Positions 26,610-33,520 of a stretch of DNA of 64,000 nucleotides are shown one piece after another. A program made the position numbers and the translations under genes. The DNA is from an uncultured Methylomirabilota bacterium (GTDB lineage Bacteria; Methylomirabilota; Methylomirabilia; Methylomirabilales; 2-02-FULL-66-22): contig OY970067.1 in NCBI GenBank assembly GCA_963705305.1, forward strand, positions 2,080,001 to 2,144,000, given 5' to 3'. The notes under the pieces are model-generated. The model had not been told where the DNA came from, searched no databases, and saw only the letters and a list, made by a program, of their open reading frames with translations. Each line of letters starts with the position of its first letter. The first letter of the stretch is position 1.

Positions 26610-26709
26610 GCGGATTCCTGCCCGCGGGGCCCTCATGCTCCAGACTTCGGGCGAACGCCACTGGCTCCTGCCAGTGCCCATATCTGAAAGCGCTACTCCG
26701 GGCAAGGCC

Positions 26710-26990
26710 AATAACATTCGCTGCGCAAGAGCCCCGCGGCAGGATTGGGGATAGACCACGCCTGGCCCGGCCCAGCGCGCCCGAAGGTGGGGCGCAGGGC
26801 CGGCGGACGATCCCGCGCGCGGTTGTGGGTGGTTCGGTCTCCCTCCCTACGGGTTGCGGGCCTCGGGTGCCGGTGTCATCGGAACCATATCTTCGCCGTC
26901 ATCGCGGCATGATGGTGTCCCGGAGGGACGTCGCAATCAGATTCCGAGCGTCTCCCGCTCATGGGCACTTCGCGCTGGTCCCTCCGTGGA
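26710..26990 (-). ncRNA. Putative bridge/seek RNA of IS110 element 1 (boundaries approximate)
   Basis: Four segments at 26886-26969 match the target and donor half-sites and are separated by hairpins. Confidence 0.75.
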
Positions 26991-28034
26991 CGACGCCGGG
27001 CGGGCCGCCGGGTCGCGGGTCCGGTTCCCGCTTGGTCAGGATCCAATAGGTGGCTTCCGCCAAGTGGCGCGCGACCGCGCCGATTGCCGTCGCGTGCCCC
27101 TTCCGCTGCTGGATGCGCGTATAGAGGCAACGGACGTGGCGGTGCGGCCGGGCGGGGCGCGTGCGGTCGGTGGGACTCGCCGCCTCGACGAAGGCCCACT
27201 TGAGGTAGCGAGTGATGTCCACCCGGAGCTGGCCGTAGTGGACGCGGCCCCCGCTGGCGTGCACGCGCGGCGTGGTGCCGGCATAGGCGGCGAGCTGCGC
27301 CGCGCGCGGGAAGCGGCGGATGTCGCCGATCTCCAGGCGGAGGACCACGGCCAGCACCCACCCGACCCCGGGGAGCGTCCGGAGGAGCTGGAGCTCCGGG
27401 GTGGGCGCAAAGACCGCGCGCCGGCGCGGCTCGAAGCCCTCGATCTGGGCCGACACAACGTCCAGCTGCTCCAGGAGGCGCTCCGTGGCGGTCCCGACTG
27501 TGCGGCGCCAGCAGGGGGAGGGCGGTGGTGAGGAGCCACTGGCGCCCGCGGCGCCCGAAGAGATCGCTCGTCCCCTCCAGGCGCAGGCCGGTCCTTGGCC
27601 AGGGTGGCGTGGATCCGATTCTTGAGCCGGGTGCGCTCCCGGGTGAGGACCATGCGGGTGCGGGGGAGATCCCGCTGATCCCGGAGGGGGCCGGGCGGGA
27701 TCCACACCGTGGGGAGCGTCCCGGCCCGCTGCAGCCGGGTCCGCCCCCGCGCGTCGAGCGTGTCGGTCTTGGTCCCCAGGCCGCGCAGGAGCTTCGCCTT
27801 GCGCGCGTGGACCAGCTGCGGGACCTGGCCGGCCGCTTCGATCTCGTCCACGATCCAGTCCCAGGTGCCGACGGTCTCGACCGCCACCGGCGAACCCCGC
27901 TCGCGGGTCGCGAGGAATTGCTGCAGGGCGCCCCGGACGTGGTCGATCCGGCCCTCGTACCGGCGCTGGCCGTCCTCCGTCTCCACCGAGACCTGGGTGT
28001 ACCGCTTGTGGGCATCGAACGCGATGTACTCCAT
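26959..28034 (-). pseudogene. IS110 transposase/recombinase with two frameshifts (~27590, ~27493)
   Basis: [24 protein letters not shown] (DEDD RuvC) in one frame; [26 protein letters not shown] in another. Confidence 0.88.
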
Positions 28035-28226
28035 GGCAGCGCGCCTCCTCTCAGCGGGGACCCCGCCCGCACCCCCTCCCGGGTCGACCGCAGCATACGC
28101 TGCAGTGCTCAGGAGGCGCAGCGCTTTCATAGCATCAGATTCGCCCTGCCCGTTGCACAAAGGTGTTGAATAGCGTCGGGGATTGGAGCACAAACTCCTT
28201 GTGCTTACTGCGCAGAGGGGGTGCAC

Positions 28227-28292
28227 AAATCGGAGACGTTGCAAGTTTCGTCAGCCTACGCGAATATGCCTCAATCGTGCCCCACCACGCAT
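28227..28292. repeat. Island repeat R1
   Basis: AAATCGGAGACGTTGCAAGTTTCGTCAGCCTACGCGAATATGCCTCAATCGTGCCCCACCACGC; homologous to R2 and R3. Confidence 0.85.
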
Positions 28293-28308: not shown

Positions 28309-28974
28309 CTACGCCTCGGACCGGAGAAACGCCACGAACTCATCGAGCGCCCGCTGCTCTTCGGCGGTCAGCTTCGAGAAGGACTCCGACTGGGCGGCAA
28401 AGGCGAAGGCGCGTTCGCGCACGTCAGGTGGCACCTCCCGGACGGCGCCGGCGAGGACCGCAAGCTTGCGATCGGGGATCCCGAAGAAGGTCGCGAGCCG
28501 GTGGAGCGTCAGCGGGGACGGCCGGTATCCGGGATTCCGCTCGAGCGCGGCCAACTCCTGCCGATCCACCCCCGTCTTGTCGGCTAGGCCCGCGACCGTG
28601 AGCCCGCGCGACCGGCGGAGCATCTGGATCACCCGATGAAAGGCCTCCCGCACCTCCTGGATTTCGGGATCCTTCGCGGTCATGACCACGGTCAGCCTCT
28701 GGTTCAGCGCGCGGGCGATGCGATCCAGCATCGTCAGCGACCGCCCCTCGTAGTCGGCATCCTCGAGCCGGCTAATCACGGACTGGGTCGTGCCGATGAG
28801 CTCGGCGAGCTGCTGCTGGGACAGCTCCGCGGCGGTCCGCATGTCGTGGATGAGGCGGGCTGCCTCGGCATTGACGCGTTCCTCCTGGAGGGCGGCCTTC
28901 CGTTCGGGATCGTCCTTCACGTATCGACCGTGAAGGATCTGGACAGCGTTCCGGGTCCGCTCCTTCTTGGCCAT
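28309..28974 (-). CDS. XRE/HigA-like antitoxin with two HTH domains
   Basis: LSQQQLAELIGTTQSVISRLE and a second HTH GLTVAGLADKTGVDRQELAALE; downstream of the toxin gene. Confidence 0.85.
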   Translation of the reverse strand: MAKKERTRNAVQILHGRYVKDDPERKAALQEERVNAEAARLIHDMRTAAELSQQQLAELIGTTQSVISRLEDADYEGRSLTMLDRIARALNQRLTVVMTAKDPEIQEVREAFHRVIQMLRRSRGLTVAGLADKTGVDRQELAALERNPGYRPSPLTLHRLATFFGIPDRKLAVLAGAVREVPPDVRERAFAFAAQSESFSKLTAEEQRALDEFVAFLRSEA

Positions 28975-28978
28975 GGCG

Positions 28979-29341
28979 TCACTCCTCGTAGGTGTGTTTC
29001 TGCGGGTTCTGTTCAAACCGTGCCCGATTCCGGAGAGCCCGGTCGATCTCCGCCGGCGGGACAGCGCCCTCCTTGGTGCACCCATGGCTGAGGACAGCAC
29101 GGCCACCGTGGAAGAAATAGAGCATCCGGTACTGGACGTTTCCTTGCCGGGCACGCAGCTCATAGATACCGTCGCGCAGTAGATCCGCCTCGGGTCGTCG
29201 CAGCTCATGACCGAGCTCCGCGAGGCGCTCGATCCGTACGATGCACTTGTCCTGCACTTTCGACGAAAGGTCATCCAGCCAGGCCAGCAGGGGCGCAGAC
29301 CCATCGTCCTCAGCGAAGAACACCACATCGGTTTGTGGCAT
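28979..29341 (-). CDS. RelE/HigB (Gp49-like) toxin
   Basis: GHELRRPEADLLRDGIYELRAR..VQYRMLYFF..VLSHGCTK..VPPAEIDRA. Confidence 0.88.
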   Translation of the reverse strand: MPQTDVVFFAEDDGSAPLLAWLDDLSSKVQDKCIVRIERLAELGHELRRPEADLLRDGIYELRARQGNVQYRMLYFFHGGRAVLSHGCTKEGAVPPAEIDRALRNRARFEQNPQKHTYEE

Positions 29342-29509
29342 CGGGCGTGCCCTCGGGCGTGCTTCGTACCGGACGAAGTATCGCATAATTGCTATAAACG
29401 TGTCAACGCTTTTTTGCGATATTTGTGATAGCTCACCAAACGTGTTCGGCTCGAGCAGATCAGGAATTCTGAAAAAATAGGGGACCCGGCCGTTTCTGCG
29501 CTGTCAAGG

Positions 29510-29785
29510 CACATTCCTCCTCGCGATGCCGAGTCCTGAACGCATCTCACACCTGCTGCCTGCCGTCGTTCCCCCGGGACCGCTCCCGGATGGTCTCTCA
29601 CGCCCCACCGTAGTGGTCGCATCCGGCCTGCTCGCTGCCACCCGAGCGGCCTACCCGGCCTCGTCCGGGCTGCTGAGAGCGGGAGCGGCGCGCCAGGGTC
29701 CCCCGGCGGTCCCACCGGGCCGCCACGTTGCATGAATCGCGCTGCCAGCTCCCCGGGGAAGACAGACGCTGTCCCGCCGGCCGGC
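29510..29785 (-). ncRNA. Putative bridge RNA of IS110 element 2 (boundaries approximate)
   Basis: Segments at 29725-29732, 29698-29703, 29651-29660 and 29610-29614 match the target and donor half-sites, with intervening hairpins. Confidence 0.75.
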
Positions 29786-30991
29786 TCAGCGGACCTGCCG
29801 CTGGAGCCCGCCCGTCCGGCGTGGGTCGTACGGGGTCCCGCTCCGCCACACGCCCCAGACGACCCGGAGCACTTTCGCCGCCAGTTCGACGATCGCCTTG
29901 AAGCCAGCGAAGCGGTCCCCCTGGCGCTTCGCTTTCAAGGCGGCGAGCCGGGCCCGCCCCGCGGCGGTCCGCGCCAGTCCCAGCGCCGCGTGGTACAGCG
30001 CCCAACGCAGAAGGCTGCGCCCGCACTTGGAGATTCGCGCCTGCCCCGCGAACTGCCCGGATTGCACCCGCACGATGTCCAGCCCCGCGAGCTTCCGGAG
30101 CTGGGAGAACTTCGTGAACCAGGCGATGTCCCCGATCTCGGCCAGGAGGATCGCGGCCACGGTCGGCCCGACCCCCGGGATCGTCCGGAGGAGCGCGTAG
30201 GCCGGGAGCCGCTCGGCGAGGGGCGTCAGGGCCTGCTCGACCGCGGCGGTGCGGGCCTGAACAGCATCGACCTGGGCCCCGAGGTCCGCACAGGCCGTGG
30301 CGAGCCCGACCGGCAGCCGTCCCTTCGCCACCGCTGGGCGCCCGGGGGCCGCCGGCTCCCAGGCCTGGAGCACCGCCGGCAGCTCCGCCCGCAGGCGGTT
30401 GGGCAGGGGCTCCCCCATCGGCCCGAGGGCCGGGCGGAGGGTCGTGCGCCAGCGCGCCTTGCAGGCCGCCAGCTCGCTCCGGGCCCGGCGGAGGCACTTG
30501 ACCAAGTGCCGCAACTCGACGCGGGGGCCATCGGGCCGGCTGTAGAACAGCACCTTCCCCTGTTCGAGGAGGTCGGCGCAGTTGGCGGCGTCCTTCCGGT
30601 CGCCCTTGTCCCAGGTCCCGTCCTGGGTCCGGCGGTTCCAGTAGGCCACGCTGCTGGAGAACAGGACGACGTCGGCGCCCTGCGTCTCCAGGAACACCGC
30701 GAGGGCCTGGTGGTAGGTCCCCGTGGGCTCGAGGCCACAGACCACCTCGCGGCACCCGGTGCTCCGCTGGGCCTGCTGGATCCGCGCCCAGAGCTGGGCG
30801 AAGCCCCGGGTGGTGTTCGGGATCGTGAGGGTGGGCACGACCACCCGGGTGTGGGCCTGCCGGAGGTGCACCACGTGTTCGACTTGGGCGACGTCGATCC
30901 CGACCAGGAGGCGCTGGCGGTTGATGCGTAAGGTGGCCTTCAGCTCCCGGAACCGCTTGACACGCGTGGCATTGTCTCGCATCGTAGCCAT
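29786..30991 (-). CDS. IS110 family transposase/recombinase, apparently intact (401 aa)
   Basis: VGIDVA, GLEPTGTYH, KGDRKDA (DEDD); LLRTIPGVG..EIGDI..KLAGLD..QSGQ..ISKCG; GAGGAGG RBS. Confidence 0.92.
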   Translation of the reverse strand: MATMRDNATRVKRFRELKATLRINRQRLLVGIDVAQVEHVVHLRQAHTRVVVPTLTIPNTTRGFAQLWARIQQAQRSTGCREVVCGLEPTGTYHQALAVFLETQGADVVLFSSSVAYWNRRTQDGTWDKGDRKDAANCADLLEQGKVLFYSRPDGPRVELRHLVKCLRRARSELAACKARWRTTLRPALGPMGEPLPNRLRAELPAVLQAWEPAAPGRPAVAKGRLPVGLATACADLGAQVDAVQARTAAVEQALTPLAERLPAYALLRTIPGVGPTVAAILLAEIGDIAWFTKFSQLRKLAGLDIVRVQSGQFAGQARISKCGRSLLRWALYHAALGLARTAAGRARLAALKAKRQGDRFAGFKAIVELAAKVLRVVWGVWRSGTPYDPRRTGGLQRQVR

Positions 30992-31147
30992 GGGGTTCTT
31001 CCTCCTCTGTACGGGGTGAGTGGATGGCTCTCTGCACACCCCTACCAATAGCGAGGAAGAACCCCTTTTGGAACCTGCCATTTTCACCAGAAGGGGCCCA
31101 GACTGTGGGAGTCTAGTCGCTGGTACCTGGTTCATGCGGGTAATACT

Positions 31148-31336
31148 ACGCTGCAAGTTTTGTAAGCTTACGGAATATGTCTCAATCGTGCCCCACCCCG
31201 CAGGAATAGTCAATGTAGTCATCCGCATTCCGGGTTGCACGACCAGCATGGGAAATCCGCGCTTTCCCACCAGGTCTGGAGACCGCGCACGCACACCTAG
31301 ACCCGTGCCGGGGATCTTTCTACGAGGACTGGATTC
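31148..31336. repeat. Island repeat R2, main part (left stub at 29474-29485, beyond the IS110)
   Basis: ACGCTGCAAGTTTTGTAAGCTTACGGAATATGTCTCAATCGTGCCCCACCCCGC, then ~135 bp more that aligns with R3. Confidence 0.8.
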
Positions 31337-33202: not shown

Positions 33203-33413
33203 CTCCTCAGTCCTCACGCTCGACCTCGCGGGGCCGCTGATCTAATGACCGACTATTTCGCGGTGGCCACAGCTTTGCGCGAGCAAGCTACGCTGCCCGT
33301 CCTCATCCTGCTCATGAGGACAAACGAGCCAAGGAGAGAGCGAGCAATAGCGGATAGAAGCGGGGGGAACATTTTGTTGACAGGTCCGGCCGGATTGACC
33401 TATATTCATTTTA

Positions 33414-33502
33414 CCGCTAGGGGAGCAGGCGCTGAGAGTCCTCGCCGCAGGGCGGGGACAACCCTCTGAACCTGACCCGGTTAATACCGGCGTAGGGAAG
33501 CG
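33414..33502 (+). promoter_or_regulatory. TPP riboswitch
   Basis: AGGGGAGC..GCTGAGA...ACCCT..GAACCTGACCCGGTTAATACCGGCGTAGGGAA; TTGACA-18-TATATT upstream; thiamine genes downstream. Confidence 0.95.
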
Positions 33503-33520
33503 AGTCAGACGGCGATTCAG

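Follow-up and report, generated by a model that had tools for sequence, protein, structure and literature searches.

A probably RNA-guided IS1111-group insertion sequence with complete ends and guides and a broken transposase gene in a Methylomirabilota genome

Introduction

What kind of mobile element keeps its ends and guide segments while its transposase gene is interrupted, and can such an element be autonomous? This question is raised by an insertion sequence (IS) in a 64,000-nucleotide stretch of DNA from an uncultured Methylomirabilota bacterium (contig OY970067.1 of assembly GCA_963705305.1, positions 2,080,001 to 2,144,000), which we call the window and whose own numbering is used throughout. 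A preliminary description had presented the element as IS1111-type. This identity was borne out, as were a candidate seekRNA or bridge RNA located 3' of the gene, four guide segments within it, and a promoter predicted at the junction of the circular form. We consider it very likely that the window element (26679-28137) is an ordinary, RNA-guided member of the IS1111 group of the IS110 family, structurally complete and without a transposase in one reading frame. The guide architecture that had been claimed as new is already published; the pattern in which the gene is broken, at former GTAC sites, is alone unexpected.

Ends, flanks and copies of the element

The 1.46-kb element carries its transposase gene on the minus strand, and we refer to the transposase strand as the top strand. 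Including one core dinucleotide per end, the insertion sequence spans 26679-28137; both cores (26679-26680 and 28136-28137) read CA on the plus strand, that is, TG on the transposase strand, and the outer flanks are CCAGTGCC (26671-26678) and GATTCGCC (28138-28145). Subterminal inverted repeats, also present in relatives, were read directly at the right end (TGAAAGCGCT, 26685-26694) and, in transposase orientation, at the left end (AGCGCTTTCA, 28120-28129, which is TGAAAGCGCT on the minus strand). Together they make up a perfect inverted repeat of 10 bp, set 4 and 6 nt inward of the cores, within the 7-17 bp that characterize IS1111 elements; the equivalent repeat of relatives measures 8-16 bp. 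Likewise typical of the group is a longer non-coding region 3' of the gene, comprising 280 nt (26958-26679) as compared to 101 nt upstream (28135-28035). On direct reading, the coordinates given earlier for cores, inverted repeats and guides all proved correct.

A BLAST search of the element against the whole genome returned three copies. Copy 2 is 99.86% identical over 1460 nt and copy 3 is 99.93% identical over element positions 90-1459. In a flank-inclusive alignment, the likeness of the three copies (99.9-100%) ends exactly at both cores, which confirms the element ends proposed beforehand. Copies 1 and 3 are bordered by CCAGTGCC ahead of the first CA and by GATTCGCCCTGCCCG behind the last, copy 2 by CGAGTGTAC and GATTCTGC. 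The flanks yield the consensus AGTG[CT][CA]C-CA-GATTC, describing different sites with similar half-sites, and are unrelated outside this ~10-25-bp target. In three of three copies we found the site-specific insertion of the IS110 family, with the same core dinucleotide at both junctions and no target duplication beyond the common core.

The copies differ in one respect. Just inside the right end, copy 3 (G000:C1:961366-962802) has a different segment of ~70-90 nt in place of window 26679-26770, resembling the relatives L102 and L105, whereas the right-end segment of copies 1 and 2 is a derived version, 22 nt longer. The replaced segment implies that recombination between variants has happened.

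A predicted two-armed RNA behind the transposase gene

Covariance model R1 places the candidate bridge RNA or seekRNA gene at 26849-26999 on the minus strand (142.8 bits; core ~26995-26868). The RNA is ~130 nt long and conserved across many phyla: over the first ~93 nt past the stop codon, 36 loci of diverse phyla reach 73-86% identity to the window sequence, and in an alignment of 48 RNA sequences, invariant anchors (AGCGCG, TGA, TGATTGCGA, TCATG, GACGGCG and AAGAnATG) flank short hypervariable blocks. The window RNA is predicted to fold into an outer helix with two arms, each composed of a stem, an internal loop and a hairpin, at a minimum free energy of -55.6 kcal/mol (z = -2.29; 5 of 200 shuffles were as stable). 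In the alignment, 88.1% of the structure cells hold standard pairs, as compared to 35-47% after the partners have been shifted by 1-3 columns. Compensatory changes occur in 20 of the 39 pairs, and none of 500 shuffles reached any of five measures. The hairpin GTCCC/GGGAC, previously taken to be local, has to be redrawn, as GUCCCUCCG pairs with the upstream CGGAGGGAC; this first-arm helix shows compensatory change at nine of nine pairs. The base helix of the second arm is the weakest (70% paired). The two internal loops of a bridge RNA or seekRNA, backed by compensatory changes, are found in this RNA.

The covariance model, built on the alignment, recovered the RNA in 72 of 80 related loci from genome collections, always on the transposase strand, behind the gene and ~1030 nt past the start codon; judged by their lengths, five of the eight unmatched loci end before the expected RNA position. 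Within its own genome, the model matches exactly the three element copies (142.8, 142.8 and 134.8 bits) and no orphan RNA gene. A comparison with Rfam gave no family for the RNA, whether at the gathering threshold or at E values up to 1. Some ~35 nt at the end of the coding sequence also belong to the 5' part of the RNA. Here, the last ~12 codons (26962-27000) are read in different frames by homologues while the nucleotides are conserved, the coding sequence ending in ...VHGGTSAKCP and a stop codon in the window and in ...ASSTEGPARSAHERATLGI and a stop codon in the homologue P0003. These comparisons indicate that the constraint at the 3' end of the coding sequence is on the RNA helix, not on the protein. 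Among RNA runs, only three contigs of X15 matched (90-95% likeness), covering 27594-28169 in the 5' part of the gene and none covering the RNA; these contigs represent relatives and say nothing on expression.

Four guide segments and the covariation of the target guides with the flanks

All four guide segments noted before fall within hypervariable blocks of the two internal loops, at exactly the positions given. In loop 1, the target guide on the 5' strand (26962-26969, minus strand) reads AGUGCCCA (DNA AGTGCCCA) and is complementary to the top strand of the core and right flank. Its counterpart on the 3' strand (26938-26944, minus strand), GAAUCUG (DNA GAATCTG), equals the top strand of the left flank and core and hence pairs with the bottom strand. 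In loop 2, the donor guide on the 5' strand, CAUCAU (26909-26914, minus strand; earlier given as CATCA, 26914-26910), is complementary to A+TG+ATG across the circle junction, and the 3' strand, AGAUAUG (26886-26892, minus strand; DNA AGATATG), corresponds to the right-end AGATA plus the core.

For a covariation analysis, 178 sequences were scanned with RNA-anchor and end patterns, and 81 of them had the RNA and at least one recognisable end. Beyond the core, the loop-1 5' strand matches the reverse complement of its cognate right flank at 4.26 of 7 positions (58 distinct pairs), as compared to 2.00 in 3280 non-cognate pairs. For the loop-1 3' strand and the left flank, agreement is at 4.03 of 5 positions (38 pairs), as compared to 1.36 in 1372 non-cognate pairs. 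When one representative was kept per guide (46 and 29 classes), 0 of 10,000 permutations reached the observed totals on either side. The target guides therefore covary with their flanks, as do those of a bridge RNA or seekRNA. In L039, the core is CG instead of TG, and the change is found together in the loop-1 anchor, the loop-2 3' strand and both ends; L031, in which only the right end was recognised, has the same change. Among relatives, the loop-2 3' strand tracks the right-end variants GATA, GAGA and GATT as well as the core TG/CG. The left end always starts with ATG, and this invariance makes covariation uninformative for the loop-2 5' donor guide.

Could the guide-like matches have arisen by chance, the hairpins being only terminators or transposase-binding sites? 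The donor matches are indeed short (5 and 7 nt), and among 20,000 dinucleotide-preserving shuffles of the 320-nt region, 23 contained both donor guides in order. However, although the target 8-mer turned up in 70 shuffles and the 7-mer in 249, none held both target guides in order and none of the 20,000 all four. Together with the covariation over 46 and 29 guide classes and the conserved structure with its compensatory changes, these shuffles rule out the chance explanation, to which we attach next to no probability.

Strand logic and relation to known systems

The guides had been thought to read the opposite DNA strand. This is not the case: the left half-site is read via the bottom strand and the right half-site via the top strand. 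Guides are assigned to strands in the same way in IS621, bottom for left and top for right (Durrant et al. 2024, PMC11208160). The element had also been called the mirror of a second IS110-family element nearby. What differs from IS621 is confined to the 5'/3' order of the guides, and this swap is not new: Siddiquee et al. (2024, PMC11187229) report the top-strand binder first in all IS1111 seekRNAs tested and the reverse order in the IS110-type ISEc21. The swapped guide order is a known family trait, already in print.

The window element resembles the IS1111 elements ISEc11, ISPa11, ISKpn4 and ISPst6 (PMC11187229) in its subterminal inverted repeats and its long non-coding region 3' of the gene. 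It resembles their seekRNAs in that the top-strand-complementary segment lies 5' of the bottom-strand one and overlaps it at the insertion point, and those elements also in its predicted circle-junction promoter and in its target, a repeated non-coding sequence. Its protein, by contrast, is distant: the best plasmid-borne IS110-family matches to an intact homologue share 33-39% identity, the nearest annotated ones including IS1328 and ISGsu4-family transposases (~35% identity). Intact relatives measure 350-363 aa, whereas 330-350 aa are quoted for IS1111 transposases (PMC11187229), and the window RNA, as a further difference, begins inside the 3' end of the coding sequence.

With IS621 (PMC11208160), the window element shares a DEDD recombinase and a two-loop RNA in which the target loop precedes the donor loop. 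It differs in that its RNA is located in the right end, that of IS621 in the left end; each loop of the window RNA, moreover, has the binder of the top strand first, 5' of the binder of the bottom strand, an order reversed in IS621. The long inverted repeats and the core TG further set the window element apart. A third point of comparison is ISPpu9 of Pseudomonas putida with its small RNA Ssr9 (PMC12288879), likewise an IS110-family element that sits in repeated extragenic sequences and has a small-RNA gene 3' of its transposase gene. For ISPpu9, extra orphan copies of the RNA gene are described, whereas the covariance model finds the window RNA only inside the three element copies.

Predicted junction promoter and proposed transposition route

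The promoter proposed for the circle junction, TTGCCC-17-TATGAT, is supported by sequence conservation. Its predicted -35 box TTGCCC lies at 26700-26705 on the minus strand, at a 17-nt spacing from a predicted -10 box, TATGAT, that arises only in the circle, from 26682-26681, the core and 28135-28134. The -35 box of the window element matches TTGACA at four of six positions. TTGACN with at least 5/6 matches to TTGACA, 16-18 nt from the junction-made -10, is found in 43 of the 64 distinct right ends that relatives provide.

By analogy with ISEc11 and IS621, the core of the latter being CT, we propose the following route. The element would excise as a circle with its ends joined at the TG core, and the junction thus formed would create a promoter driving both the transposase gene and the RNA behind it. 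In the ~130-nt RNA with its two internal loops, loop 2 would handle the circle junction as loop 1 handles the target, and the DEDD recombinase would exchange strands at TG, giving insertion without target duplication.

The transposase gene and its breaks

The transposase gene starts with ATG at 28034 and falls into three pieces, all on the minus strand. Piece A (27591-28034) contains the DEDD RuvC-like domain (PF01548, DEDD_Tnp_IS110; E 5.4e-11), piece B (27491-27589) matches residues 147-180 of a homologue at 88%, and piece C (26959-27489) comprises the Transposase_20 domain (PF02371; E 8.4e-20) and ends with the stop codon TGA (26961-26959). Both IS110 domains are thus present, but in different reading frames. 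The model NF033542, 'IS110 family RNA-guided transposase', matches both pieces with 77.3 and 107.1 bits, each below the 140-bit cut-off, whereas the intact homologue P0003 scores 221.4 bits. Homology at E 1e-10 or better was found for 2592 of 3443 candidates. The best homologues, intact proteins of 356-363 aa, are 89-90% identical across residues 1-147. In most relatives the gene is one open frame, intact lengths being 350-363 aa.

Two frameshifts had been noted before, and both are present, but the count was incomplete. In frameshift 1 (27590-27593), a Tyr codon of the homologues, TAC, has become GACC (+1) as judged from the alignment to L102 and others, so that the window reads ...LAK-D-(extra C). 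In frameshift 2 (27490-27493), TAC has again become GACC (+1), giving ...APHSR-D-(extra C)-ATERLLEQ... A third +1 change, GTACC to GGACCC, affects the variable C-terminal tail (27018-27022; alignment column 1203). With insertions at 27590, 27490 and ~27020, the one uninterrupted frame of an autonomous IS is missing, and all three breaks are common to all three genome copies. The ends and guides are intact despite the broken gene, as had been stated. The search for intact copies elsewhere in the genome came to nothing: tblastn detected no intact paralogue and no other gene of this transposase lineage, only the unrelated family of the second element (~35% identity over the C-terminal domain). 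The suggestion that the copies could be mobilised in trans thus finds no helper in this genome by tblastn; mobilisation could occur only if a cognate transposase were supplied or the breaks bypassed.

Part of the read-level evidence comes from a public run, X1, which holds 60% of sampled words at no less than 99% identity. Its loose ends carry Nextera adapter sequence, and it therefore represents short-read data. X1 may be the source sample of the genome, in which case it is independent by technology and not by origin. Contigs of X1 span 27154-27518 and 26960-27065 without a gap or a difference from the window, and thereby confirm the second and third insertions. Relatives show the unbroken state. 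At site 2, the relative in X2 is without base 27491 and carries 27493 C>A; in the tail, those in X2 and X4 are one base shorter (at 27017/27019) and carry 27021 C>A. These changes restore TAC. Wherever independent contigs cover a frameshift, as they do at two of the three sites, it proves real. Of the two causes originally offered, recent decay fits, and sequencing error is unlikely for two of the three breaks.

Further signs of decay are found in the remainder of the gene. Conserved residues are substituted in the window copy (WYW to WDW), and the LMLGMVNKTDK block is also altered. Compared to L102, the nearest intact relative (89.65% over 1401 nt), the gene has a pN/pS of 0.46 overall and of 0.36 in the DEDD domain; for this domain, the values are 0.09-0.13 in pairs in which it is unbroken. 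These ratios indicate that the N-terminal domain of the transposase evolves under relaxed constraint. With its gene broken in this way, the element is very likely represented in the genome by three non-autonomous relics of a recent burst.

Recurrent changes at GTAC sites

Comparison of seven close relatives (the window copy, L101-L105 and L153) revealed that single bases were inserted into the coding region on seven occasions, six of which turned an ancestral GTAC into GGACC or GGTCC. These six are spread over five different sites and several lineages: the WYW codon in L153, site 1 in the window copy and, separately, in L104, site 2 in the window copy, L101 and L105, a non-Tyr GTAC in L103, and the tail in the window copy, L105 and L153. 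The remaining insertion, like each of the five single-base deletions, falls outside GTAC-derived sites. Substitution-only forms (GGAC, GTCC and GGCC) exist at the same sites as those six, as apparent intermediates from which the +1 forms would then have arisen. In window coordinates, the affected GTAC sites are 27590-27593, 27490-27493, 27018-27022, 27859-27862 (the WDW codon) and ~27176-27179; three of eight ancestral GTAC sites are unchanged in the window copy.

Among 16 frameshift junctions in 13 more distant loci there was no further GTAC-derived case, and a genome-wide k-mer test for loss of GTAC and gain of GGWCC gave no signal (observed/expected 0.93 and 0.88). The site-1 frameshift of L028 was considered as a GTAC case and rejected, being a separate event in which one A was deleted.

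The GTAC-derived +1 pattern is the sole surprise of this element. Because the changes recur, breaks found in common may themselves be recurrent and not inherited. We tentatively mention, as a possible but doubtful account, that GGACC and GGTCC are the scars of a sequence-specific process acting on the IS lineage, for example GTAC cutting followed by error-prone end repair of transferring or excised DNA. If true, a host or restriction-linked route would repeatedly disable an RNA-guided transposon at defined sites, revealing a natural mode of inactivation. As a separate observation, A:T to C:G transversions dominate among private substitutions in the window copy (14 of 48) and in L105 (10 of 19); L102, L101 and L103 have 1, 0 and 1 such changes.

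Alternative explanations

If the frameshifts were assembly or sequencing errors, the element would be intact and autonomous. In favour of this, the genome was assembled from a metagenome, as a single contig, and is 6.5% contaminated, and the first break is covered by no X1 contig. The short-read contigs, however, pass through the other two sites without a gap, and metagenome contigs have the same +1 changes, L101 and L105 at site 2 and L105 and L153 in the tail. The altered WYW and LMLGMVNKTDK residues, moreover, cannot be produced by insertion or deletion errors, and we regard this account as very improbable. Even less credit is due, in our judgement, to programmed +1 recoding at the GAC-C sites, by which transposase output would be kept low in an element that is still autonomous. 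Sites 1 and 2 do have the same hexamer GGACCG, the third break reads GGACCC, and all three copies retain them; the frames downstream are open and recognisable, and L101, which also has the site-2 change, keeps a low pN/pS of 0.18. But most relatives manage with one open frame, two or three consecutive shifts would be very inefficient, and GTAC has become GGWCC also at a non-Tyr site and in plainly decaying copies such as L153, with its five further deletions. It also counts against recoding that the tRNA-Asp on GAC is unable to re-pair at ACC after +1 slippage.

The three copies might alternatively stem from gene conversion or duplication between pre-existing copies and not from transposition of a broken element. 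The replaced segment near the right end of copy 3, like that of L102 and L105, would suit such an exchange; yet the flanks are unrelated beyond the target, and all three breaks would have had to be carried into every copy, so we hold conversion to be unlikely.

Several observations weigh against reading the locus as a decayed, RNA-guided element. No RNA, circle or transposition has been observed, and frameshift 1 (27590), which lies outside the X1 contigs, is without read-level support. Simple decay cannot account for near-identical copies that are all broken; the element must have moved in its broken state, or the breaks were passed on by gene conversion. On the side of the guides, 13 of the 58 right-flank cognate pairs match at no more than two of seven positions, some of them being one base off register (e.g. 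GGGGCCACC guides) and some ends having possibly been miscalled by the patterns. Finally, an A/C variant in the donor-loop 5' strand (CAUCA vs CCUCA) goes with the right-end variants GATA/GAGA and not with the left end, its expected partner. This variant involves columns 97-101 and 126-131 of alignment A1; it could reflect an RNA-RNA pair (AUC/GAU vs CUC/GAG) or a handshake-type contact.

Distribution, target module and neighbouring features

The clade to which the window element belongs occurs in Rokubacteria, Acidobacteriota, Spirochaetota, Planctomycetota and others, and thus adds a widely distributed clade to the RNA-guided IS1111 elements. Its natural guide/target pairs (46 and 29 guide classes) could be used in engineering as a ready-made table of specificities. 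No copy of the element turned up in 40 related genomes, 20 being of the same genus, whose only matches to the element DNA are of 29-83 nt, in the conserved transposase domain; the closest relatives are short contigs in metagenome collections. Among these, L102 has the same guides and the same flanks as the window copy, and L101 adjoins the same repeat end.

The target, GGCGAATC-TG-GGCACTGG, is part of a repeated non-coding module that follows a tRNA-3'-like fragment and has 10 matches in the genome (G000:C1:941983, 361883, 961331, 1861905 and six more). The module, the native target of the IS, consists of ~100 nt ending in the tRNA-3'-like TCGAGYCC...GGCTCCCC, followed by GGGCGAATCTGGGCACTGGGAGGAGAGG and GCTGGYGTGAAGG. 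For the host genome, this accounts for three insertions beside a repeated non-coding module. The empty target deduced in the preliminary description, AGTGCCCAGATTC, has no exact counterpart in the genome, which offers four sites with one mismatch. None of the 54 tRNA genes called by ARAGORN stands beside the tRNA-3'-like fragments at native target sites, and the module has no match in Rfam.

The same module is used by several copies of a 201-bp element resembling a miniature inverted-repeat transposable element (MITE), which is bounded by terminal inverted repeats whose outer ends read CAACACCTTTGTGTARCGGSTAG and is flanked by 9-bp target duplications (e.g. G000:C1:73772-73972). Its terminal motif has 50 matches in the genome with one mismatch allowed, mostly as inward-facing pairs, and one related MITE end (window 28146-28230) directly abuts the window IS copy.

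The second element nearby (element 2, 29476-31163) is a different IS110-family element with an intact transposase of ~400 aa; three of its genome copies are identical and a further one reaches 82%. Its non-coding regions measure ~165 nt (5') and ~310 nt (3'), and it has no match to the covariance model of the window RNA. In a quick look at its left end, TAGGGG and TGCAG match its own ends, with a strand logic that does not fit IS621. The proposal that elements 1.3 kb from each other use two different RNA architectures is plausible. Between both insertion sequences, window 28309-29328 (minus strand) encodes a 339-aa protein with two Xre-type helix-turn-helix domains. Farther along, a thiamine pyrophosphate (TPP) riboswitch is located at window 33409-33515 on the plus strand, scoring 68.5 bits as compared to a gathering score of 54.3.

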